DNA of 64,000 bases, taken from Omnitrophica WOR_2 bacterium GWF2_43_52. GTDB lineage: Bacteria; Omnitrophota; Gorgyraeia; Gygaellales; UBA12090. The translations under genes and the position numbers were made by a program. Position 1 is the first letter of the stretch; the number at the start of each line of letters is the position of its first letter. Positions 6,253 to 64,000 of the stretch are shown here, piece after piece. Where the stretch lies: NCBI GenBank assembly GCA_001805445.1, contig MHGF01000003.1, positions 184,429 to 248,428 of the forward strand, given 5' to 3'. Under the pieces are notes generated by a model. It had not been told where the DNA came from and did not search any database. It saw nothing but the letters and a program-made list of their open reading frames with translations.

Positions 6253-7224
6253 ATGAATACCGAACACAAAGTGTATATAGCGATGCCGACATATAATGGA
6301 GAAAACTTTCTTGCCCAGGCTATCACAAGCGTTTTAGAGCAAACATTTACAGATTGGGAACTTCATATCGTAGACGACTGCTCAAAAGACAAGACTGAAG
6401 AAATTGCACTCTCTTTTAAGCATAAAGAAATATTTTTTCATAAAAATAGCAAAAATTTAGGATTGGTGAGGAATTTCAATAAGAGCCTTGCCTACTGCCG
6501 AAGTGAATATATTTCTTTCTTCCATCAAGACGATATAATGAAACCGGAAAATTTAGAGAAGAAAATTGCAGTACTGAAAAAAAATCCCAACGTAGGATTC
6601 GTGCACTCCAATATTGAATTAATTGATGAAGGAAGTAATCCGTTAGGTATACCCTGGTTTAAGAACAAAAGTTATGACACCATAGAAAAGGGCAGGGAAG
6701 TATTCAATAGCTTATGGCAACAGGGAAACCGTATTATTCTCCCCTCAGTTTTAATTCGAAGCTTGTGTATAAAAGAATGGGGGGGGTTTGATGAACGACT
6801 GCCATACACCTGTGATTATGAGCTCTTCATGAGGATGGCTTACCACTACGACGTTGCTTATCTTCACGAACGACTGATAGAAAGGAGATTGCATAGAAAT
6901 CAAGAAACAAAAAAATATTGTGCTTCTTTAAAAGGTTATCAGCATGATAGGTTAGCACGAACTATAGCTATCGAAAAAAGTAAAATAGAACTACCCCACA
7001 ATGAACTTCGCAAGTTTGAAAAACGTTTCATCGTGTATTATACGCGGTACAGCTACTACGATAACAATATGGCTGAGTGTAAGAAGTTTCTTTTATTCTC
7101 AATAAAGAATCATCCTTCGCTTTACTTAAATATAAGCTTTTTAATCTTATTCTTCAAAATTATTTCGGGCCGCAAAGGGAAATATTTAGCAGGGAAAGTA
7201 AAAAATTTATTATACAAAAGGTGA
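6253..7224 (+). CDS. Family 2 glycosyltransferase (GT-A fold)
   Basis: The N-terminus reads YIAMPTYNGENFLAQAITSVLEQTFTDWELHIVDDCSKDKT, and a DxD-like motif, HQDD, follows. Confidence 0.7.
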   Translation: MNTEHKVYIAMPTYNGENFLAQAITSVLEQTFTDWELHIVDDCSKDKTEEIALSFKHKEIFFHKNSKNLGLVRNFNKSLAYCRSEYISFFHQDDIMKPENLEKKIAVLKKNPNVGFVHSNIELIDEGSNPLGIPWFKNKSYDTIEKGREVFNSLWQQGNRIILPSVLIRSLCIKEWGGFDERLPYTCDYELFMRMAYHYDVAYLHERLIERRLHRNQETKKYCASLKGYQHDRLARTIAIEKSKIELPHNELRKFEKRFIVYYTRYSYYDNNMAECKKFLLFSIKNHPSLYLNISFLILFFKIISGRKGKYLAGKVKNLLYKR

Positions 7225-53984: not shown

Positions 53985-55189
53985 CCGGACATAAAATCTC
54001 CGAACTCCACACAGAAACATCAGCCACCCTAAAAGACTTCTTAAACAGCGCGCTTAAGGATATTATGGCTGTTACCCACGCGGAGTGCGGCTCCCTGTTT
54101 TTATTTGATTCAGAAAATAAAGAGCTTGTCATGAACTCGTTTTACAATACCAAAGAATTACCTCTTAAAGGGCTCAAGCACAGGATAGGGGAGGGGGTTT
54201 CCGGAAAAGTGGCAGGCATACAAAGCCCGGTTCTCGTCAAAGACATCGATACCGATATACGTTTCAGGCGTAATGGCTATACGCACTACCGCACAAAATC
54301 TTTCATTTCAGTGCCGATTTCCAACTCTCAAGAATTATTAGGGCTCATTAACTTAGCAGATAAAGCAAACGGAGAACCTTTTTCTAAGGATGACCTCAAC
54401 GCCGCGGTTGCGATAGCAAAATATGCCTGCCTAAGCCTTGATGCCTTACACAGCTATACCGAGTTAAAGAAAGAAACCGATGCCCTTCATACGCAAAGCG
54501 CCCATCTTGAAAAATATGCCTCCGTGGGAAAACTTGCCGGGGGCATTGTCCATGAAGTCAATAATCCGCTTGATGGAATTATTCGCTACACCAACATGCT
54601 CCTTAACCAGACCGATGACAACACTACCGCCAGAGGATACCTTCTGGAGATAAAAAAGGGCCTTGAAAGGATCGCGCACATTACCAAGAGCCTCCTTGAA
54701 TTTTCCCACCAAATTAATGCCAACGCCTCCTGTCAAAAAAGGTATATAGACATCGAGCACCTGATAAGGGAAACCCTGGATGTCATTCATGATGAGTCCT
54801 TAAAGAATATTAAAGTCATTAACCTAATCAAACACTCTTTGCCCAAGGTTATTGATTTCGGGTTATCTCATATAGTGATAAATATAATCCGTAACGCCAT
54901 TGACGCTATGGCCAGTGGAGGGGCGCTCAGCATTAGCGCCCAAACACATTACGCGGGCATCAATATTAGCTTTCAAGATACAGGCACAGGCTTAAGTGAT
55001 GAAGTCAAGAAAAGGATATTTGAGCCATTCTTTACTACCAAAAGTAGAGAGAAGGGAAGCGGGCTTGGCCTGGCAATTTGCAATGAGATTATCCAAAAGT
55101 ATGAAGGCACAATTGATGTAAAAAGCTCACCGGGACAAGGAAGCACTTTTACCATTTTTATCCCCCAAAAATATATCACGCATGCATAA
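53981..55189 (+). CDS. Cytoplasmic GAF-domain sensor histidine kinase (PrsK-like partner of the sigma-54 activator)
   Basis: An N-terminal GAF domain. H-box …HEVNNPLDGI…. HATPase_c N, G1 and G2 boxes (…NAIDAM…, …DTGTGL…, …GSGLGLAI…). The stop overlaps the start of the response-regulator gene. Confidence 0.65.
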   Translation: MTGHKISELHTETSATLKDFLNSALKDIMAVTHAECGSLFLFDSENKELVMNSFYNTKELPLKGLKHRIGEGVSGKVAGIQSPVLVKDIDTDIRFRRNGYTHYRTKSFISVPISNSQELLGLINLADKANGEPFSKDDLNAAVAIAKYACLSLDALHSYTELKKETDALHTQSAHLEKYASVGKLAGGIVHEVNNPLDGIIRYTNMLLNQTDDNTTARGYLLEIKKGLERIAHITKSLLEFSHQINANASCQKRYIDIEHLIRETLDVIHDESLKNIKVINLIKHSLPKVIDFGLSHIVINIIRNAIDAMASGGALSISAQTHYAGINISFQDTGTGLSDEVKKRIFEPFFTTKSREKGSGLGLAICNEIIQKYEGTIDVKSSPGQGSTFTIFIPQKYITHA

Positions 55190-56603
55190 CAAGCCGGTTC
55201 CTCATGGCAGGCATATCCTCATCGTTGATGACGAGCCGCTGGTGAGGCGTTCGTTAAGCGAATTCCTGACCCTCCAAGGCTACAGCGTCAGCTCTGCCGC
55301 AAACGGCAAGGAAGCCTTAGGATTGTTAACAACTTATACCGCGGATATCGTTATCACCGATATACGAATGCCGGAATTAGACGGCCTGCAATTGCTCAAG
55401 CACATCAAACAAGACTATCCGCATACCCCCGTTATCCTGATGACCGGCTACGGCAGCATAGAAAGCGCTGTCGCGGCAATCAAGGAAGGCGCCTATGATT
55501 ACGTAACCAAGCCTATTGTTGACAGCGAAATAAAGATAGTCATTGAACGCCTCGTTACCCAGCGCCAGCTCCAGGAAGAAAATATAAGGCTTAAGCAGCA
55601 ACTTTCGGTTGCTTCTGTAAGAGAACGGTTTCATCATATCGTCGGAAAAGACGAAAAGATGCAAAAGATTTATTCTCTTATTGAGGCAATAACCGGTACC
55701 AGGACAACCGTGCTCATTCATGGGGAAAGCGGCACCGGGAAACGTTTAATAGCCCATGCCATACACAAATACAACGAGCAGGAAAGAGGGAAACCTTTTA
55801 TTGAGGTAAGCTGCGGCGCGTTGACCGAAACACTCCTGGAGAGCGAACTTTTCGGCCACGCCAAAGGCTCCTTTACGGGAGCGATAAAAGACAGAATCGG
55901 CCGCTTTGAGCTGGCAAACGCGGGGACAATCTTTCTTGATGAAATAGACGCGTCATCGCCGGCGTTACAGGTAAAACTCTTGCGGGTACTCCAGGACGGT
56001 GAATTTGAGCGGGTAGGAGATGCCACTACTATCACTGTCGATGTCCGTGTCATTGTCGCGACCAACCAAAACCTCCAGGAATTAATAACGCAGGGGAAAT
56101 TCCGTAAAGACCTCTATTACCGCCTTAATATCATTTCTATCGATATCCCGCCTTTACGGGAACGCAAAGGCGATATTCCACTTTTGGTTGAAGAATTTAT
56201 CAAGAAACATTCTAAGCATACAAGCAAAAAAATAGACGGGATATCAGAAGAGGCCTTAGGCCTTTTGGCAAAATACGCGTGGCCGGGAAACGTCCGGGAA
56301 CTTGAAAATACCATAGAAAGGGCGGTCATCTTAAGTAAGGACCACATCATTCAACCCAGAGATCTGCCGAAATCTATTCACAGCCACATAGCAACGCAAG
56401 CAAAAGAATCTGCTGATAGCCTGGGATTAAAAGATGCCTTAAAATCCCCGGAAAAAGACTTGATTCTAAGAGCCTTGGACGCCACGGGCTGGAATAGAAA
56501 TGAAACAGCGCAAAACCTAGGGATTAACCGGACTACACTTTATAAAAAAATGCAAAAATACAGTTTGCTAAAACCGCGTAACTCCGATGCCGGAAGAACA
56601 TAA
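55182..56603 (+). CDS. Sigma-54-dependent transcriptional response regulator (NtrC family: receiver + AAA+ sigma54-interaction + Fis-type HTH)
   Basis: Receiver domain (ILIVDDEP…DIVITDIRMP). AAA+ domain with GESGTGK Walker A and a GAFTGA-like loop (GSFTGA). ESELFGH and the C-terminal HTH (…NRNETAQNLGINRTTLYKKM…) complete the family signature. Confidence 0.8.
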   Translation: MHNKPVPHGRHILIVDDEPLVRRSLSEFLTLQGYSVSSAANGKEALGLLTTYTADIVITDIRMPELDGLQLLKHIKQDYPHTPVILMTGYGSIESAVAAIKEGAYDYVTKPIVDSEIKIVIERLVTQRQLQEENIRLKQQLSVASVRERFHHIVGKDEKMQKIYSLIEAITGTRTTVLIHGESGTGKRLIAHAIHKYNEQERGKPFIEVSCGALTETLLESELFGHAKGSFTGAIKDRIGRFELANAGTIFLDEIDASSPALQVKLLRVLQDGEFERVGDATTITVDVRVIVATNQNLQELITQGKFRKDLYYRLNIISIDIPPLRERKGDIPLLVEEFIKKHSKHTSKKIDGISEEALGLLAKYAWPGNVRELENTIERAVILSKDHIIQPRDLPKSIHSHIATQAKESADSLGLKDALKSPEKDLILRALDATGWNRNETAQNLGINRTTLYKKMQKYSLLKPRNSDAGRT

Positions 56604-57606
56604 AAGCGATCACACCCATCAAGACATAAGCTTAAAAGATTTACTTGATATCCAGAAATGGCAGGAAATCCAGGATGATTTCTCTGACATAACCGGTATT
56701 TGCCTGCGTATCGTAAGCCCTGAAGGTAATCTCATTGCCTCCTCCTGCGAAAAAGCAACCTTATGCACCGAGGTACTCAGAAACAGCCCGACAAAGAACA
56801 GGCTCTGCGGGACATGCCTGCCGACCTTTTTATCAGGGAAAGCAGTAGTAGACAAGAATTTGAGTTTTTATTGCGACGCGGGCATGTATAACTTTATTTC
56901 TCCGCTTATAGCCCATCACGATAAAATCTTAGGATACCTTATCATGGGGCCTGTCATTTTAGTCATGCGTCAGCCTAAAGAGGCCTACGAAACCATTGCC
57001 CATGAATTCAGCGTGGAATTAGAGGATTTTTGGAACGCGCTCTTAGAAATCAAGGCTATCTCTTTCCATTACGCGCAATCGCTCATGAAAGTAATACAAA
57101 ATGTCGCGGAGTATATGCTGCAATCATCTTCACGAGGCAAAGAGGAAACATACGCAGCTCTTCCGGCCAACACTAAAGAAGCATTAACGAAGCGCTTCGA
57201 GGCATTTTTAGACGTAGCATTTGAGTTAAGCAAAGCAGATATAGGTTCGGTAATGTCCTTACCTAAGGATACCAATGAGCTGACCATAGAAGCCGCCAAG
57301 GGCATACCCGATGCTATTGTAAAAAATACAAGAGTAACACTGGGAAACGGAATTGCCGGACTCGCGGCAGAAGAGGGGATATCGCTTTTATTAGATAACA
57401 CGGTAGCCGATAACAGGCTGCTTCACTATTTCAAAAGGCCACACCTTAATTCTTCGATGGTTATCCCTTTTAAAACAGAAGAGGGGAGAGTACTTGGAGT
57501 ATTAAATGTAGGCGCGCTCAATACGTCTCAAGTCCACTTTAATAAGAATACCCTGCAGATGATGGACACCTTCGCGCGGCTTGCGGCTGTTTCGATGCAA
57601 CCGTAG
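56587..57606 (+). CDS. PocR-domain + GAF-domain sensory protein
   Basis: The N-terminal half matches the PocR ligand-sensing domain pattern (…FSDITGICLRIVSPEGNLIA…CTEVLR…CGTCL…FYCDAGMYNFISPLI…). The C-terminal half is GAF-like (…GNGIAGLAAEEG…). Confidence 0.5.
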   Translation: MPEEHKSDHTHQDISLKDLLDIQKWQEIQDDFSDITGICLRIVSPEGNLIASSCEKATLCTEVLRNSPTKNRLCGTCLPTFLSGKAVVDKNLSFYCDAGMYNFISPLIAHHDKILGYLIMGPVILVMRQPKEAYETIAHEFSVELEDFWNALLEIKAISFHYAQSLMKVIQNVAEYMLQSSSRGKEETYAALPANTKEALTKRFEAFLDVAFELSKADIGSVMSLPKDTNELTIEAAKGIPDAIVKNTRVTLGNGIAGLAAEEGISLLLDNTVADNRLLHYFKRPHLNSSMVIPFKTEEGRVLGVLNVGALNTSQVHFNKNTLQMMDTFARLAAVSMQP

Positions 57607-57612
57607 CGCTCT

Positions 57613-58932
57613 TTATTTGACCCGCCGAAAACCGGAAGAGAGAATTTTCAAGCCTTCCCGGTACTTAGCAACCGTCCTTCTTGAAACATCTATTTTTCTT
57701 TCTTTGAGAAGATAACGTGTTATTTCCTGATCACTCAAAGGGTGTTTTTTATCTTCCTGCTCAATGCATTCTTTAATGATGGATTTAATCTGGCCTGAAG
57801 AAAAAGATTCCCCGTCTTTACCGTTGATACGGCTGGTAAAGAAGTTTTTTAAGGCTATAACAGACCCCTCGGGTAATTCCACGTATTTATTCATCACTGC
57901 CCGGCAGACCGTGGTTTCATGAAGAGAAAGCCTTTTGGCTACTTCTTTAAAGGTAAGCGGCTTAAGGCTGGAAAAATCATTAAGCAAGGCCTCCTGCTGG
58001 ATATCCACCAAAACCTGCATGATTTTTAAGAGTGTTTCTTTTCTTTTAGAAACAGCCTGTACCAACTCAAGGGCGTAACGAAGTTTATCGCTTAAAAACT
58101 CCTTGGCCTCTTTATCATCACGGTGTTTCTTTAAAAGAGAGCGGTAAGATTCATTAATACGTATGCTAAAACTATCTTCATTATTGATGGTAACCTTGAT
58201 GCACTCGGCATCATGAGTAATAATAACGTCAGGAATCACTGCCTGCGGCTCTTCCTGGGAATAATTGCGGCCTGGTTTGGGGTCAAGCCGTACTATTTTT
58301 TTTATCGCTAATTCAACTTCATCAAGGGGTTGTTTAAGGCTCTTGGCGATATGGCTATAGTTTTTCCTTGCGACATCCTCAAGATGAAATTGAATAATCA
58401 TTTCTACCAAAGGCTCATTTTCTCCCAGTGATTTCTGCTGAATAAGCAGGCATTCTGAAATTGAGCGCGCGCCAATTCCGGCAGGCTCAAACTGCTGAAT
58501 AAGGCGAAGTACGCTTTCAACATTGGTTAAAGGCAGATTGACCGCGAGGGCTATTCTGTCCAGGGGAGTAGTCAAGTAACCGTTTTCATCCAAATTGCCA
58601 ATAATTTCCTGCCCAATAAGCAACGTCTGATCATCATCAGCAAACATACTCAATTGTCTCAAGAGCACATCCTGTAAAGAGATTTTCTGGGTAATTAAGC
58701 TCAAGCGGTAATTAGACTCCTCATTATGGTAACCTGCTTGAGCGCTGCGAAAACGTAGGTTCTTGTCCTGTGGCTTGGATAAAGGCCTAAATTCCTCAAG
58801 AAAGGGATTTGCATCCAATTCCTGCTGAATAGCAGTAATCAGGTCTGCCTGGGGTAAGGTTAATATCTGCAGCGATTGCTGAAGGCGGGGAAGTAAATAT
58901 GTCCTTAATTCTGGGCGTTGTCTGATTTCCAT
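57613..58932 (-). CDS. rpoN: RNA polymerase sigma-54 factor
   Basis: The C-terminal RpoN box …DVSRRTVAKYREGLKIL…, an upstream HTH, and a Gln/Leu-rich N-terminal region I. Confidence 0.8.
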   Translation of the reverse strand: MEIRQRPELRTYLLPRLQQSLQILTLPQADLITAIQQELDANPFLEEFRPLSKPQDKNLRFRSAQAGYHNEESNYRLSLITQKISLQDVLLRQLSMFADDDQTLLIGQEIIGNLDENGYLTTPLDRIALAVNLPLTNVESVLRLIQQFEPAGIGARSISECLLIQQKSLGENEPLVEMIIQFHLEDVARKNYSHIAKSLKQPLDEVELAIKKIVRLDPKPGRNYSQEEPQAVIPDVIITHDAECIKVTINNEDSFSIRINESYRSLLKKHRDDKEAKEFLSDKLRYALELVQAVSKRKETLLKIMQVLVDIQQEALLNDFSSLKPLTFKEVAKRLSLHETTVCRAVMNKYVELPEGSVIALKNFFTSRINGKDGESFSSGQIKSIIKECIEQEDKKHPLSDQEITRYLLKERKIDVSRRTVAKYREGLKILSSGFRRVK

Positions 58933-59169
58933 ACTATAAGTATAACATAGTTTTGCCTAATTTCAAGTAGGGCATCCTTCTGGCTAACTTCCTATAATAT
59001 ATCTTATGTTAACTACAGCCTATAGAGTTTATGCTCTTTGCCTGTTGCTTTGTAATAGGTTGCGTAATCTAGCTGTTATTCTGCCTTATTTACTCAACGA
59101 ATCGGAATTTGCACTTGTTGCTTATGCGCAAATTAGCTTATGGGCATTTGGGGAAACGGATACTCATCC

Positions 59170-59667
59170 CTATCGGTAATTGCAAAAATTCAGCGCCAAA
59201 GGAAAGTCTATAGCCTTAAGATGAGCAATGACTGCCTGCAGTTCGTCTTTTTTACCGGAGCTTACTTTCAATTTTTCGCCTTCAATTTGAGCCTGAATTT
59301 TGCTATTAAACTCTTTAATAATTTTAACTAAATCCTTGGCTTTTTCCTTAGGGATACCCATGGTTATTTCGACTTTTTGGCGCATTGTTCCTTCAAATGC
59401 CCTTTGCGGCTCTCCAAAAACAAGCGACTTGAGCGAAATACCCCGCTTTACCATTTTGGTACACAAAATATCGGTCAAAGCCTGTAATTTTGTGTCATCA
59501 TCAGCGATTAGGATAAGCTCCTTGGCATTTCGGTCTAAATCCACGGATGCCTTGCTATTTCTGAAATCATAGCGCTGGGAAAGCTCTTTCTTAGCCTGAT
59601 TGACCGCGTTATCCGCTTCCTGAAGGTTTACTTCTGATACAATGTCAAATGAGCAGGTTTCTGCCAT
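59170..59667 (-). CDS. yajQ: YajQ-family (UPF0234) nucleotide/c-di-GMP-binding protein
   Basis: A 165-aa protein: MAETCSFDIVSEVNLQEADNAVNQAKKELSQRYDFRNSKASVDL… matches the YajQ family along its whole length. Confidence 0.7.
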   Translation of the reverse strand: MAETCSFDIVSEVNLQEADNAVNQAKKELSQRYDFRNSKASVDLDRNAKELILIADDDTKLQALTDILCTKMVKRGISLKSLVFGEPQRAFEGTMRQKVEITMGIPKEKAKDLVKIIKEFNSKIQAQIEGEKLKVSSGKKDELQAVIAHLKAIDFPLALNFCNYR

Positions 59668-59812: not shown

Positions 59813-60091
59813 CTAAGCATTGATGCGGCTAAGGATTTTCGCGTAAACATCTCTCCTATTGCCGATTTTAAGGATAAAGATAGAATTTCCCTGGATTTTG
59901 TGTATTACGCGGTAATCGCCGACACGCAATTTACGATATCCTTCCAAATTCCGTTTTAAAGGCTCACTTGCGACCTCAGGATTAGCAAGAAGCCTTTCTT
60001 CAATAGCGCGTCTTATTGTTACTTTTATGTTCTGGGGAAGCCTTTTCAAATCATTTGGGATATCCGGATGGTAAAAAACTTCGTAGGCCAT
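59813..60091 (-). CDS. RelE/ParE-family toxin
   Basis: …RKLRVGDYRVIHKIQGNSIFILKIGNRRDVY… signature, with an antitoxin-like ORF immediately upstream. Confidence 0.6.
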   Translation of the reverse strand: MAYEVFYHPDIPNDLKRLPQNIKVTIRRAIEERLLANPEVASEPLKRNLEGYRKLRVGDYRVIHKIQGNSIFILKIGNRRDVYAKILSRINA

Positions 60092-60097
60092 AAGTCT

Positions 60098-60325
60098 TTA
60101 TCCCCAGACTTGTTTATGGGTTAGGGCAGTTTTATTTGAAAACGTCTTTTCGCGGGATTCAGCCGTCTTGGCCCAATATCCGTCTTCGTAGCTTTCAAGC
60201 GCCTCACGAATCAAATCCCTAGCCTTAAAAGACAAGGAAACACGATCCTTTTGGGCAAGATGCCGCAGCGCCATATACAAAGGCGCCTCCAAAACAACAT
60301 TCAAACGCGGGTTTTTAGTAGCCAT
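60098..60325 (-). CDS. Ribbon-helix-helix-type antitoxin
   Basis: A 75-aa ORF 6 nt upstream of the toxin. An N-terminal beta-strand (…RLNVVLEAPLYMALR…) followed by helices is typical of CopG/RHH antitoxins. A GGAGG RBS is present. Confidence 0.45.
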   Translation of the reverse strand: MATKNPRLNVVLEAPLYMALRHLAQKDRVSLSFKARDLIREALESYEDGYWAKTAESREKTFSNKTALTHKQVWG

Positions 60326-60713
60326 ATATTTTTACCTCCAAAAATAGTGTATCATAAGTGATGAACCTTGTCAAGGATGGATTTATAATTCCGCACGGAA
60401 GTCTGGGAATCCACGCGCCCGCACGGGGCGCGATGTTTTCTCAATGGACATCTCAAGAGCAGTTAGGTCTATTTAAATCCTTTCTATCTTGTCAATAAAA
60501 CAGAACCGTCCCCTTTTTCCTGATAACGGCCTCCATTGATGAAAATATTTCTTCATCTCTGTGGCGCATTGTTGGGTCAGATTTATCTGCTCTAACCATA
60601 AACCGAGCTTATCCTTAAAACCTTTGTGCTTCTCCCAGATATTATTGATTTCGAAAATAATCATTGTCTATATTTGTTTCTGTTAGTGCGTATCAAAATC
60701 ATTGTATTTTTCC

Positions 60714-61154
60714 TTAGACACGTATCTCTAACAATGCCTGCCCAAGTGGTTCTTTTTCTTCAACAAACCGGACATCCATTCTCTTGATCCGCTCGCGCGC
60801 GTCATCAAATGCTTTCCTAAAAGGCGTATTATTCTTTAATAGGTCTTTCCGTGATCCCGATGGCCGATACGATGCGCTTAGCCGTTCGGTAGCGTGCCGC
60901 GCCAAAAGAAAGGCAAATGTCGCCATATTATGAGAGGGCCGCGTGTGATTACGGAGTCGACGTTTAAGATTGTTTGTCCGGCCAACGTAGAGAGGCTTAT
61001 CGTTTTCAGAAAACAGATATATCCCAGCTTCATGCTCATACTTCTTCGGAACTGTATTCCACGTAAACGGCAAGGATTCCCTGAGATGATCGTATTTTCT
61101 ATCAACGTCTGTCATGATTTTATTAAATTTATTTTTCATAAATCTTCTCAACAT
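60714..61154 (-). CDS. GIY-YIG nuclease-domain protein
   Basis: GIYLFSENDKPLYVGRTNNLKRRLRNH matches the GIY-(x10)-YVG-(x)-R…R…H catalytic motif. Confidence 0.5.
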   Translation of the reverse strand: MLRRFMKNKFNKIMTDVDRKYDHLRESLPFTWNTVPKKYEHEAGIYLFSENDKPLYVGRTNNLKRRLRNHTRPSHNMATFAFLLARHATERLSASYRPSGSRKDLLKNNTPFRKAFDDARERIKRMDVRFVEEKEPLGQALLEIRV

Positions 61155-61376
61155 TCAGAAGAAATCCTACAATTAATTGGACTTCTTGAGCTTCACGATC
61201 AAGGCGGCGCGGTTAATGTCGGGGAAATATTCTTCGGTCATAACGCAGATACTTTCAAATTAACGAGCTGCACTAAAAAACCTCTGTTCAATAAATACAA
61301 TTACATTATTAGACGCCATCTCTATAACATTTTCTTTCCTTCACCATTCTTTTCTTCTCTGTCCTTCACTACAACT

Positions 61377-62006
61377 TTATACGTCAATCACTATGGGCTG
61401 ATTGACCACATCATAGTCTTCGTTCAAGACGGAACAATTGACGTATGTTGTATCTTTTGTTTTCTGAATGCCGTAACCGCCATGAATATGCCCATGGATG
61501 ACATACGGGATCTTTAGTTTCTCAACTCTATTGGCCAAGGTTCTACTGCCCCAATGATCGCCCTGAAGCTCGGCAGTATCCAAATAGCCATGAGCGGGCC
61601 CATGCGTTAAAAGCACATCAGTATTTTGAGGTATCTTGCTCCAATGATACCGGTCGAGATTCTCCTCCGATTCCATGAACGCCCAATTCAAGAATGTTAT
61701 CGTCATCGGAGATGCCCATAATGCCATGCCGTTAGGCAAGGTATACGATTGGTTTTTCAAATAAACCGCTTTAGTTAAATACTTCCCGGCCTCATTCGGG
61801 AACCGCTCACAGAAAAAGTCATGATTCCCCGCGATAACAATAACAAGCTTGTGCCTTAATTCTGAAAGCCAGTTATTAAAGTCAATCAAATCTAATGCCG
61901 AACGAAATTCCCCATCACCCGCAAAGAGCAAAACATCGCCATCAGGAACCTGAAGTTTCCGGTGCTTGGCATGAGTATCTCCTATAACGACTACACGCAT
62001 TAACAC
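61377..62006 (-). CDS. Calcineurin-like metallophosphoesterase
   Basis: Motifs GDTHA, GDGEF, GNHDF, …HGP… and GHIHG (the D-x-H…GD…GNH[DE]…H…GH-x-H set). Confidence 0.7.
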   Translation of the reverse strand: MLMRVVVIGDTHAKHRKLQVPDGDVLLFAGDGEFRSALDLIDFNNWLSELRHKLVIVIAGNHDFFCERFPNEAGKYLTKAVYLKNQSYTLPNGMALWASPMTITFLNWAFMESEENLDRYHWSKIPQNTDVLLTHGPAHGYLDTAELQGDHWGSRTLANRVEKLKIPYVIHGHIHGGYGIQKTKDTTYVNCSVLNEDYDVVNQPIVIDV

Positions 62007-62295
62007 CTATTCCAATTCAGTTATTTCCTTTTTGGAAACAACTTGCCTTATTTAACGCCTTCCATCGCCTTATTGATCCGTTCAAGCGCCTTATCCAGAT
62101 CGAAATTATCGCGTTCAATTGGGGATAGAACGTCAAACAATTCAGCTTCGATACGAGAACGCATATCATCAATCTCAGTGTAAATATTTCTTAAGAGCGG
62201 GAAACCGATCCCACATAGCCAGCATAAATGAAGCTATTGAGATGATACCTATAAAAAATGACCACAAATCGATTTTTCCCATTTCACCTTCTCTG

Positions 62296-62838
62296 CTATA
62301 CCTGCATAGCTTTCAGAATCAAATCCAACTCTGAAACTTGCGCTCTTCGGCCATCAAGCATTGTTTTAGGAAATTTAGCCACATACGACCGCTTATCCAT
62401 CTTTTTTTCTTCAGATATATACTCGGTATGGAAATCACGCTTACAGTTATCAGACGTGGCACTTGCCTGTGAAAATCCGGGATGTCCCAGTATCGCTAAA
62501 AATAACCCCTCAATGCAGGGAGTCGCTGTTAGTATTTCTACGCGCGGTCGCTTTTTCATTCGATCGGATAATTTATAATCTGTTTCAAGCGGCCTATCGG
62601 CATCAAATAGCACATAACACTTATCGTAAGCTCTACTTCCACGTAAACGTATTGCTTTTTGAACCACGCAACATGGCGACCCGCCTGAACCACATTCAAC
62701 CTTGACGGCACAATCAAAATCCCGGGCGACGTATAATTCCTTGAGATACTGCAAGAAAGCTTTATCAGTGGGGCCTTCCCCTACTATGAGAATTGTTGTT
62801 TTTGTGTTTCTGGTCGGTTTTATTCGTCTTGGTGTCAT
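62296..62838 (-). CDS. RloB/AbiLii-like small protein (TOPRIM-like), partner of the upstream AAA ATPase
   Basis: …TTILIVGEGPTDKAFLQYLKELY… resembles the ILIVCEG-x-TE core of RloB-like proteins. The gene lies 12 nt downstream of the ATPase gene on the same strand. Confidence 0.45.
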   Translation of the reverse strand: MTPRRIKPTRNTKTTILIVGEGPTDKAFLQYLKELYVARDFDCAVKVECGSGGSPCCVVQKAIRLRGSRAYDKCYVLFDADRPLETDYKLSDRMKKRPRVEILTATPCIEGLFLAILGHPGFSQASATSDNCKRDFHTEYISEEKKMDKRSYVAKFPKTMLDGRRAQVSELDLILKAMQV

Positions 62839-62850
62839 ATTGCGGCTCCT

Positions 62851-63996
62851 TTATAGGTTGGGAACCGCACCATAAGCACCGGCCATGTATTTTGCGTAAA
62901 TATTATCGTCTCGCCGCACTCCCTTTAGCTCATCAAGCCGATATAGTTCGCTCTTACACTCTTGTTTTTTTTCGACCAATACAATTTGTTCTTTTTCAAG
63001 ATGATTGAGAACTTCTAATGAATGCGAAGTAAAAAGAAGCTGACTATTTTTGGGGTTAGTAGCAGGGTTAGCGAATAACTCAATTATTTGCGGCACGGCA
63101 TGAGGATGCAAGTCAATCTCAAGCTCATCTATTACTGCAAGCCCACCCTGCTCAATAGCTGACAAAAGAAAATGCAATAGCACAAACATATTTTTCGTGC
63201 CGCTGGATTCAAAAGCCAATGGCAATTTATATTGCTTATCCTTGACCTTATGCACGCCATATGGCAAATAAACTTTTCTTGCTTCTCCTGTCTTAGGATT
63301 ACGCGCTTCGCCCTCTTCAATTAATATACCTTCAAGACCAAGATCTATATCTTTTAAGAATTGAACAACCTTAACAAAAAGATTTTGATTTTTATTATAG
63401 GCCTCAGTAGCTTCAAATAATCCGCGTTCGCCAAGCGAAGAAGTATCCCATGATTTTCCCATGCGATTAACGTTGCTAATAATCTTCTCCCAAAACCCAG
63501 CAATATCAGTAAGAAAATCGTTTTTTATTGCGACAGATGCAGCAATTAAAGACACATTCTTGCGCAAAATTTCTTTAAGTATCTCCGTCTTTAAATTTAT
63601 GCGCTGAACAATATCAGAACTCTCCGCCTGAGCGTTCCAATTTCTTTTGAATATATAATTAAAATGTTGCGTGTCTTCTTTGCGGTATAGCTCTTCCTTT
63701 ACGACATGAGTTTTGCATAGATGCAGAATATATTTATAGACAACATCTCTGTGATCAAAAACCAATTCGAATTCTGATACGCTCTCTTTGTCCTCTGAGA
63801 ACGCAAAATTATCGACAGGAATTGATTCCTTTTCCCCTTCTAACCCGACAAAAGAATTCCGTACAAACCAACTAAGAAAAGCCAGCGCCTTAAGAGCGCT
63901 TGTTTTACCAGAGGCATTAGGCCCGATCACAATCATGACCTTACTGAGACGATCGCCTAACGGTGTGTCACAGAACATATTACTTTTTGTTTCCAC
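62851..63996 (-). CDS. AAA_21/ABC-like ATPase (RloA/AbiLi-like)
   Basis: Walker A GPNASGKTS near the N-terminus. A Walker B / D-loop region LAVIDELEIDLHPHAV and a LFTSHSLEVL H-loop are typical of AAA_21-family ATPases that pair with RloB-like proteins. Confidence 0.55.
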   Translation of the reverse strand: METKSNMFCDTPLGDRLSKVMIVIGPNASGKTSALKALAFLSWFVRNSFVGLEGEKESIPVDNFAFSEDKESVSEFELVFDHRDVVYKYILHLCKTHVVKEELYRKEDTQHFNYIFKRNWNAQAESSDIVQRINLKTEILKEILRKNVSLIAASVAIKNDFLTDIAGFWEKIISNVNRMGKSWDTSSLGERGLFEATEAYNKNQNLFVKVVQFLKDIDLGLEGILIEEGEARNPKTGEARKVYLPYGVHKVKDKQYKLPLAFESSGTKNMFVLLHFLLSAIEQGGLAVIDELEIDLHPHAVPQIIELFANPATNPKNSQLLFTSHSLEVLNHLEKEQIVLVEKKQECKSELYRLDELKGVRRDDNIYAKYMAGAYGAVPNL

Positions 63997-64000
63997 TCCC

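Follow-up and report, generated by a model that had tools for sequence, protein, structure and literature searches.

The window analysed here is a 64,000-nt stretch of contig MHGF01000003.1 (positions 184,429 to 248,428; assembly GCA_001805445.1) from Omnitrophica WOR_2 bacterium GWF2_43_52, and its last kilobases carry a co-directional set of minus-strand genes: an AbiL-type ATPase/RloB pair, two micro-open reading frames (micro-ORFs), a metallophosphoesterase gene, a GIY-YIG gene and a toxin–antitoxin (TA) pair. We conclude, with a probability of roughly 0.85, that this is a mosaic, variable region of the chromosome made up of exchangeable defence and TA cassettes, in which the AbiL pair is intact and the micro-ORFs are remnants of other genes. 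In the sequence-only reading, an earlier annotation made from the letters of this DNA, the same genes had been described as a small defence islet, with the micro-ORFs as a possible cryptic toxin/immunity pair or regulator of the Abi system. The islet itself was borne out, the surroundings being a variable region of defence and TA cassettes. ORF calling recovered every listed ORF at the same coordinates on the minus strand, with the ATPase start corrected separately, and the domain calls held (AAA_21, RloB, Metallophos, GIY-YIG and ParE_toxin in Pfam; RelE-like in PHROG).

Several public contigs match the final 5 kb of the window at 100% identity, among them L001 (GCA_003499645.1, DNSN01000042.1), in which the island genes lie on the plus strand; a window coordinate equals 72839 minus the L001 coordinate. 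Ten public copies of the locus share 99.97–100% identity with one another, and close homologues are annotated as Candidatus Omnitrophota. The clone is present in groundwater samples, JGI 3300025154 and ERZ27254744 among them.

The AbiL pair and its cassette boundaries

The first gene of the pair, abiLi, encodes an ABC/AAA_21 ATPase (Pfam AAA_21, 9.1e-32) and lies on the minus strand at 62851..64000, with its 3′ 1150 nt in the window. In the identical public contig the full gene encodes 408 amino acids (L001 8762-9988) and starts 81 nt past base 64000, placing the first 27 codons and the promoter outside the window. The ATPase previously drawn at 62851-63996 was therefore right in its domain and wrong in its start, a GTG at 63996, since the ORF is cut by the window end. 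A DefenseFinder/PADLOC-style hidden Markov model scan matched both AbiL models. Full-length AbiLi matched PADLOC AbiLi at 4.5e-76 (254 bits; 1.1e-69 for the window-truncated protein), and its partner matched PADLOC AbiLii at 1.8e-12 and 7.4e-09. The second gene, abiLii (62296..62838, minus strand), encodes a 180-amino-acid RloB-family protein, a predicted TOPRIM-type nuclease and putative effector/toxin (Pfam RloB 5e-10, 40.3 bits against a cut-off of 31.5), and it matched no other PADLOC or Pfam family. The two genes are separated by 12 nt, as had been noted before, and this spacer carries an AGGAG ribosome-binding site. The AbiLi/AbiLii architecture proposed earlier is thus supported at both genes by the profile matches, and the pair is very probably an intact AbiL-type two-gene system.

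Residue conservation was examined in both proteins. Among 54 distinct AbiLi homologues (30–96% identity), at least 97% conservation was seen for the Walker A residues G52/K58, the Walker B pair D317-E318, D322 and H352, and for an ABC-signature-like E290-S291-x-G293-T294. In a profile search of AbiLi against solved structures, only the C-terminal ABC region of PtuA was matched. Two residues never vary among 34 RloB homologues, E21 (in the VGEGxTE that follows strand 1) and D79, and D81 varies hardly at all; the two aspartates form a DxD after strand 3. An AlphaFold2 model of AbiLii built on the homologue alignment (pLDDT 91.6, pTM 0.86) has the alternating strand–helix core expected for a TOPRIM domain. 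One metagenome assembly (L004 2504-3729, JGI 3300009296) has a copy in which a single-base indel breaks up the ATPase gene, identical apart from that, into ORFs of 125 and 234 amino acids; the indel is an error of sequencing or else a natural variant that inactivates the gene.

The same layout, in which the gene for an ABC ATPase precedes that of a TOPRIM-type nuclease, is found in PARIS (AriA/AriB), and the ATPase also matches PADLOC AriA models (8.6e-38, 129 bits; 1.2e-21, 76 bits). That the pair is PARIS and not AbiL is nevertheless extremely improbable: the ATPase scores far better against AbiLi (254 versus 129 bits), the 304 positions matched by the AriA model PDLC02980 are those that the generic Pfam AAA_21 also matches, and the 180-amino-acid nuclease matches RloB/AbiLii only, with no match to DUF4435/AriB in Pfam or PADLOC. 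The earlier description as 'PARIS-like' holds at the level of architecture and fails for the nuclease, which is RloB (PF13707) and not a DUF4435 AriB.

To place the AbiL pair among its relatives, 70 related AbiL loci were taken from genome and metagenome collections, 58 of them with enough upstream sequence to count pairing. An AbiLi homologue lay directly upstream of RloB in all 58; the spacing between the two genes ranged from −19 to +101 nt (median about 12 nt). The ATPase and RloB-like genes, whose failure to co-occur elsewhere would have spoken against the pairing, were thus adjacent in every locus counted. In blastn comparisons of L001 with L011-L059, homology began 75–240 nt upstream of the ATPase start (listed starts, L001 8519-8762) and ended at L001 10543-10550, within 7 nt of the RloB stop codon. 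Because DNA homology is confined to the pair and an upstream promoter block, AbiL forms a cassette of two genes that is complete in itself. What follows RloB varies by locus and includes RadC, type I restriction–modification (R-M) subunits, a KAP NTPase, a MazG-like protein, a transposase and others. These heterogeneous neighbours show that the cassette lands in different defence-island contexts, and a conserved third gene downstream of AbiL was rejected because of them. Among IMG/VR viral contigs only two RloB relatives were found, both distant (26–33% identity).

The best promoter match of the region, by consensus, lies upstream of abiLi at L001 8688-8716 (TTGACA-17-TATTAT with an extended TG). 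Across 19–21 nt the abiL −10 region is unchanged, even where identity in the coding DNA of a locus is as low as about 70%. The AbiL pair is transcribed from its own conserved promoter, just outside the window. An inverted repeat, TTGACAATAA...TTATTGTCAA, is present in the same promoter region (L001 8688-8730), about 40–80 nt upstream of the abiLi start, and may be an operator for autoregulation.

The pair shares its two-gene order, an AAA_21/ABC ATPase followed by an RloB-family TOPRIM-like protein, with AbiL of Lactococcus lactis plasmid pND861 and with Campylobacter RloA/RloB. The likeness extends to the defence-island setting, and relatives of the present pair lie beside type I R-M genes. 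In contrast to the AbiL prototype, the host here is an uncultured member of the Omnitrophota, the similarity is at the profile level only, and AbiLii is short, at 180 amino acids. AbiL has been grouped with PARIS among systems that combine an ABC ATPase with a TOPRIM protein, with its mode of action untested (PMC13064643, PMC11464382). PARIS, in which an ABC ATPase sensor is joined by a separate TOPRIM nuclease effector, is the best-understood model for such an architecture (PMC11464382, PMC13064643). By analogy with PARIS and with AAA–TOPRIM_OLD pairs, which act as TA systems (PMC10440598), AbiLi would hold the AbiLii nuclease inactive and sense infection. A phage trigger would then release or activate AbiLii, and the active nuclease would cut host and/or phage nucleic acid (RNA or DNA; tRNA in PARIS), aborting the infection. 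We give this sensor/effector mechanism about even odds.

A different role was also considered for the pair, as mainly an addiction/TA module or a restriction-linked accessory of the RloAB kind with no part in abortive infection. Several relatives adjoin HsdR/HsdM genes, RloA/RloB were first described within type I R-M loci (PMC10440598), and AAA–TOPRIM pairs score as TA systems in the same study. Such a role is unlikely, since the lactococcal prototype AbiL confers abortive infection (Deng et al. 1999, as cited in PMC13064643) and, as PARIS illustrates, TA behaviour and Abi function are compatible (PMC11464382).

The micro-ORFs downstream of abiLii

Micro-ORF 1 (35 amino acids; 62175..62282, minus strand) begins 13 nt after abiLii, and micro-ORF 2 (38 amino acids; 62048-62164, minus strand) follows after a further 10 nt. 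On phmmer, tblastn and blastn homology the two are the ends of two larger genes and are not components of AbiL. Micro-ORF 1 is the 5′ remnant of a gene for a multi-pass membrane protein of about 180 amino acids. A phmmer search of 1.84 billion representative proteins returned three matches only, each aligning residues 1–34 with residues 1–34: P0251 (179 amino acids, 82% identity), P0252 (180 amino acids, 58% identity) and P0250 (69 amino acids, 97% identity), the last being itself truncated. P0251 and P0252 both cross the membrane several times, and their C-terminal regions weakly resemble TPRs. The gene for P0251 is intact in L092, a different defence/mobile region, where it lies beside type I R-M, Schlafen-AlbA_2, DUF4268, a Rep protein and an excisionase-like helix-turn-helix (HTH) protein. 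DNA homology of L001 to this intact gene is limited to L001 10556-10655. In the window, codons 1–34 of micro-ORF 1 (62181-62282) are homologous and are followed by an out-of-frame stop. The membrane peptide described in the sequence-only reading is therefore present as an ORF, with a plausible single transmembrane helix, and is a fragment of a larger gene.

Micro-ORF 2 comes from the other end of a gene. Together with in-frame upstream sequence (62048..62179, minus strand) it represents the last ~42 codons and the stop of an AbiEii-family gene, that is, the 3′ remnant of a nucleotidyltransferase toxin gene. Searches made with five in-frame upstream residues added found nine small 'proteins' (P0241-P0249) of 72–86% identity, several of them longer at the N-terminus. 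An intact 303-amino-acid AbiEii in L091 (Pfam AbiEii 3.8e-28, PADLOC AbiEii 2.3e-39) carries a micro-ORF 2-like end, and micro-ORF 2 aligns to its residues 262–303 (45% identity, E 9e-10). L085 and L086 carry this abiEii gene with a frameshift, so that its tail is called as a separate small ORF, and in L089 the tail continues past the beginning of the contig. The micro-ORF 2 ATG corresponds to an internal methionine of AbiEii, Met266. In the reverse comparison, tblastn of the whole L091 AbiEii against L001 matched only L001 10663-10779 (residues 262–300 of 303), and blastn with L086 covered L001 10661-10791, ending at the stop codon.

AbiE (AbiEi/AbiEii) is a type IV TA/abortive infection system, and micro-ORF 2 shares homology with the C-terminal end of its AbiEii. 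In contrast to AbiE, only ~42 codons are left here, without the nucleotidyltransferase domain, and Pfam found no AbiEi or DUF6088 domain in any island ORF. AbiE is dead at this locus, because the toxin tail alone is left, lacking both the nucleotidyltransferase domain and an AbiEi gene. The membrane-protein and abiEii homology blocks stand 5 nt apart (L001 10656-10660, window ~62179-62183) and in different frames. In the simplest reading, a single deletion or illegitimate recombination would have joined the 5′ end of the membrane-protein gene to the 3′ end of abiEii near 62180.

The proposal of a cryptic toxin/immunity pair or Abi regulator treats the micro-ORFs as functional small proteins of the Abi operon, a membrane peptide toxin with a helical immunity protein or regulator. 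Several features fit it. Both ORFs are on the same strand and tightly packed after abiLii, micro-ORF 1 has a start codon, a plausible single transmembrane helix and a weak Shine–Dalgarno-like sequence, and gene callers predict micro-ORF 2 in most assemblies. However, tblastn found neither micro-ORF in any of the 70 AbiL loci, including those with RloB 83–91% identical, nor in four phosphoesterase-bearing loci. The homologues of each ORF are confined to one end of a larger protein family, the membrane-protein N-terminus or the AbiEii C-terminus, so neither is conserved as a stand-alone ORF or stands as an independent small gene. This is in substance the lack of conservation that the sequence-only reading had named as speaking against its proposal. 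The two homology blocks also abut, out of frame, at a single junction. When ribosome-binding sites were looked for, micro-ORF 1 had the weak AAGG and micro-ORF 2, which starts at an internal AbiEii methionine, had none. A pair of functional small proteins is accordingly very improbable, and we retain the reading of the micro-ORFs as gene remnants.

Orphan abiEii tails were also seen elsewhere. One is present at L090 2-121, and in L085, L087 and L090 the stop codon of the tail overlaps the start of the next, unrelated gene.

The phosphoesterase and the remaining island genes

Downstream of the micro-ORFs lies a gene for a calcineurin-like metallophosphoesterase of 207 amino acids (61377..62000, minus strand; Pfam Metallophos 4.9e-14, PADLOC PDC-S10 2.3e-70). 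Its ORF (61377-62006) and domain had been identified correctly; translation most likely starts at the ATG at 62000, which gives 207 amino acids as in all homologues. The PDC-S10 match is full-length (residues 2–209 against profile positions 9–216 of 223). Homologues of 65–91% identity are common in Omnitrophota, and DNA homology to four other genomes covers the phosphoesterase ORF ±3 nt only. Its neighbours in those four genomes are AbiEi/AbiEii, DUF6088, Schlafen-AlbA_2/HTH, Fic, HigB/A-like and PRiA4_ORF3 genes. Since homology is limited to the ORF in four different contexts, the phosphoesterase is an independently mobile single gene. It resembles the PADLOC candidate PDC-S10 both in its full-length profile match and in being a lone mobile gene with TA and defence neighbours; PDC-S10 itself is a candidate proposed by computation, for which we found no functional study in the literature.

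The phosphoesterase gene lies ~300 nt downstream of the AbiL pair, and the two might form a three-gene unit in which a phosphohydrolase serves this AbiL clade as an accessory component or a further effector. A phosphohydrolase gene also follows closely in the nearest AbiL relatives (RloB 83–91% identical): in L011 it encodes another metallophosphoesterase and lies 26 nt beyond RloB (2229-2792), in L013 and L041 a metallophosphoesterase is the second downstream gene (L041 4026-4571), and L012 has a MazG-like pyrophosphohydrolase (6612-6959). Against this, these phosphoesterases are not orthologous to the one in the window (BLASTP reached only E 0.002, in short segments), no AbiL pair accompanies the PDC-S10-type gene in any of its four other contexts, and most AbiL loci have other neighbours. 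Two gene stubs lie between AbiL and the phosphoesterase, and the adjacency is therefore secondary. We consider a three-gene unit quite unlikely. The phosphohydrolases beside the closest relatives could reflect coincidence or a loose functional association, and island turnover can explain them. Decidedly improbable, too, is a broader alternative in which either the 35-amino-acid transmembrane stub is still made from the abiL transcript and has taken on a role as a small membrane peptide, or the AbiL clade uses the downstream phosphohydrolase as a third component. The phosphoesterase, the GIY-YIG protein and the TA pair are separate modules, and tblastn matched none of their genes in the 70 AbiL loci.

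Directly after the phosphoesterase gene is a further remnant, the 5′ stub of a radC/UPF0758 gene (61330..61367, minus strand), consisting of the ribosome-binding-site region and the first six codons (MVKERK), followed by unrelated sequence and a stop. The stub is 92–97% identical to the start of an intact radC in L041 (6316-7026; Pfam RadC 1.9e-41, UPF0758_N 4.9e-28) and to L081 6830-6866.

The next gene encodes a stand-alone GIY-YIG nuclease-domain protein of 146 amino acids (60714..61154, minus strand), confirming the earlier domain call (Pfam GIY-YIG 7.2e-08, residues 43–80). Its PADLOC matches are marginal (0.004 or weaker), and no homologue was found in any related locus retrieved. A plus-strand ORF of 207 amino acids (60894-61517) runs opposite to the GIY-YIG gene and intergenic sequence; it lacks support and is probably spurious. 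Further downstream on the minus strand is a 63-amino-acid ORF (60473..60664) on which gene callers disagree (63 versus 35 amino acids). It had no match in Pfam, PADLOC, NCBIfam or PHROG and no counterpart in the related loci, and may be non-coding or another remnant. After it comes a perfect 7-bp GC hairpin, CGCGCCC-cgtgc-GGGCGCG (60414-60432), with a T-run on the opposite strand.

At the end of the island is a TA pair on the minus strand. The toxin, a RelE/ParE-superfamily protein of 92 amino acids (59813..60091), matches Pfam ParE_toxin at 2.8e-10 (41.1 bits, cut-off 23) and the PHROG RelE-like toxin at 1.9e-17; its score against TIGR02385 RelE_StbE (26.1 bits) is under the cut-off of 27.9. 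The gene 6 nt upstream encodes a putative ribbon-helix-helix (RHH) antitoxin of 75 amino acids (60098..60325). We infer the RHH assignment from its sequence pattern, the sole model match being to NCBIfam RelB-like, weak and sub-threshold (1.8e-4; 21.6 bits against a cut-off of 50). The RelE/RHH pair proposed earlier is thus well founded for the toxin and weakly so for the antitoxin. A sigma-70-like promoter precedes the pair at 60346..60374 on the minus strand (L001 12465-12493), with TTGACA-17-TACACT and an extended TG; it matches the consensus at 10/12 positions and is assigned by this match only. The antitoxin-first order, 6-nt spacer, 92-amino-acid toxin with ParE_toxin and RelE matches, and upstream sigma-70-like promoter are shared with type II RelE/ParE–RHH pairs. 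Here, unlike in typical pairs of this type, the antitoxin is weakly recognisable, and RelE and ParE activities are indistinguishable from the sequence.

The island as a probable mosaic

The island has a G+C content of ~0.39–0.43, compared with 0.44–0.48 in the core flank at 55182-59667. This flank holds yajQ (DUF520), rpoN (sigma-54), a gene for a PocR/GAF protein, and a sigma-54-dependent response regulator gene with that of its histidine kinase. The locus is bounded by radical-SAM/DUF4416 genes on one side and by yajQ-rpoN on the other. No tRNA integration site was found within 20 kb, and no Rfam family was detected across the island at E ≤ 1. The sole flanking-repeat or att candidate, TTAGAATAAG, is present after a PIF1-WYL gene and after the RelE/ParE gene. 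It was rejected as chance-compatible, since 35 of 100 shuffles yielded at least one match.

The PIF1-WYL gene is the next gene upstream of the island and lies outside the window (L001 6640-8268). It encodes a PIF1-like SF1 helicase with a C-terminal WYL domain and partial PADLOC matches to PDC-S68, RecD-like and WYL models, and it may belong to the same variable region as the island. Two more scars, also outside the window, lie at L001 8315-8417 between the helicase gene and the abiL promoter: what an internal deletion has left of a 155-amino-acid gene, and the beginning of a small Cys-rich ORF (MTKKCKKC...) that is cut short. Intact counterparts of both scars are found in L041 (4591-5058 and from 5070). 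A 67-amino-acid ORF without any family match was called at L001 8364-8567, overlapping the scars.

Several points weigh against our reading of an intact AbiL pair flanked by gene remnants. For the nuclease, Foldseek comparison of the AbiLii model with the PDB gave weak matches, to the C-terminal regions of the OLD nucleases 6NK8 (E 0.018) and 6NJV (E 0.024) at a TM-score of ~0.4, and a profile search of PDB sequences gave no match. The TOPRIM fold, which is likely, is argued from Pfam, the motifs and the order of secondary structure elements. Experimental phage defence by RloB-family pairs is known from Lactococcus only. For the remnants, micro-ORF 1 retains its start codon and the AAGG sequence and may still be translated. 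The orphan 3′ tail of abiEii recurs, including at L091 1396-1539, 170 nt after an intact abiEii, and this could hint at some retained role; island turnover can explain the recurrence. The ten public copies of the locus, being near-identical, yielded no dN/dS signal and no polymorphism showing decay of the stubs.

Together, these results describe independently exchangeable cassettes separated by the scars of earlier ones; we infer the order of the rearrangements, as well as any anti-phage activity. The AbiL clade travels as a cassette of two genes, with sharp limits and a conserved promoter of its own, and the present pair is an Omnitrophota example of AbiL/RloAB. The locus adds members of known defence and TA types from a little-studied phylum, with little new biology. 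For annotation, tightly packed micro-ORFs in defence islands can be the 5′ or 3′ stubs of earlier cassettes, their sources here being a membrane protein gene, abiEii and radC, and such micro-ORFs need to be compared with full-length families before they are proposed as small toxins or regulators.

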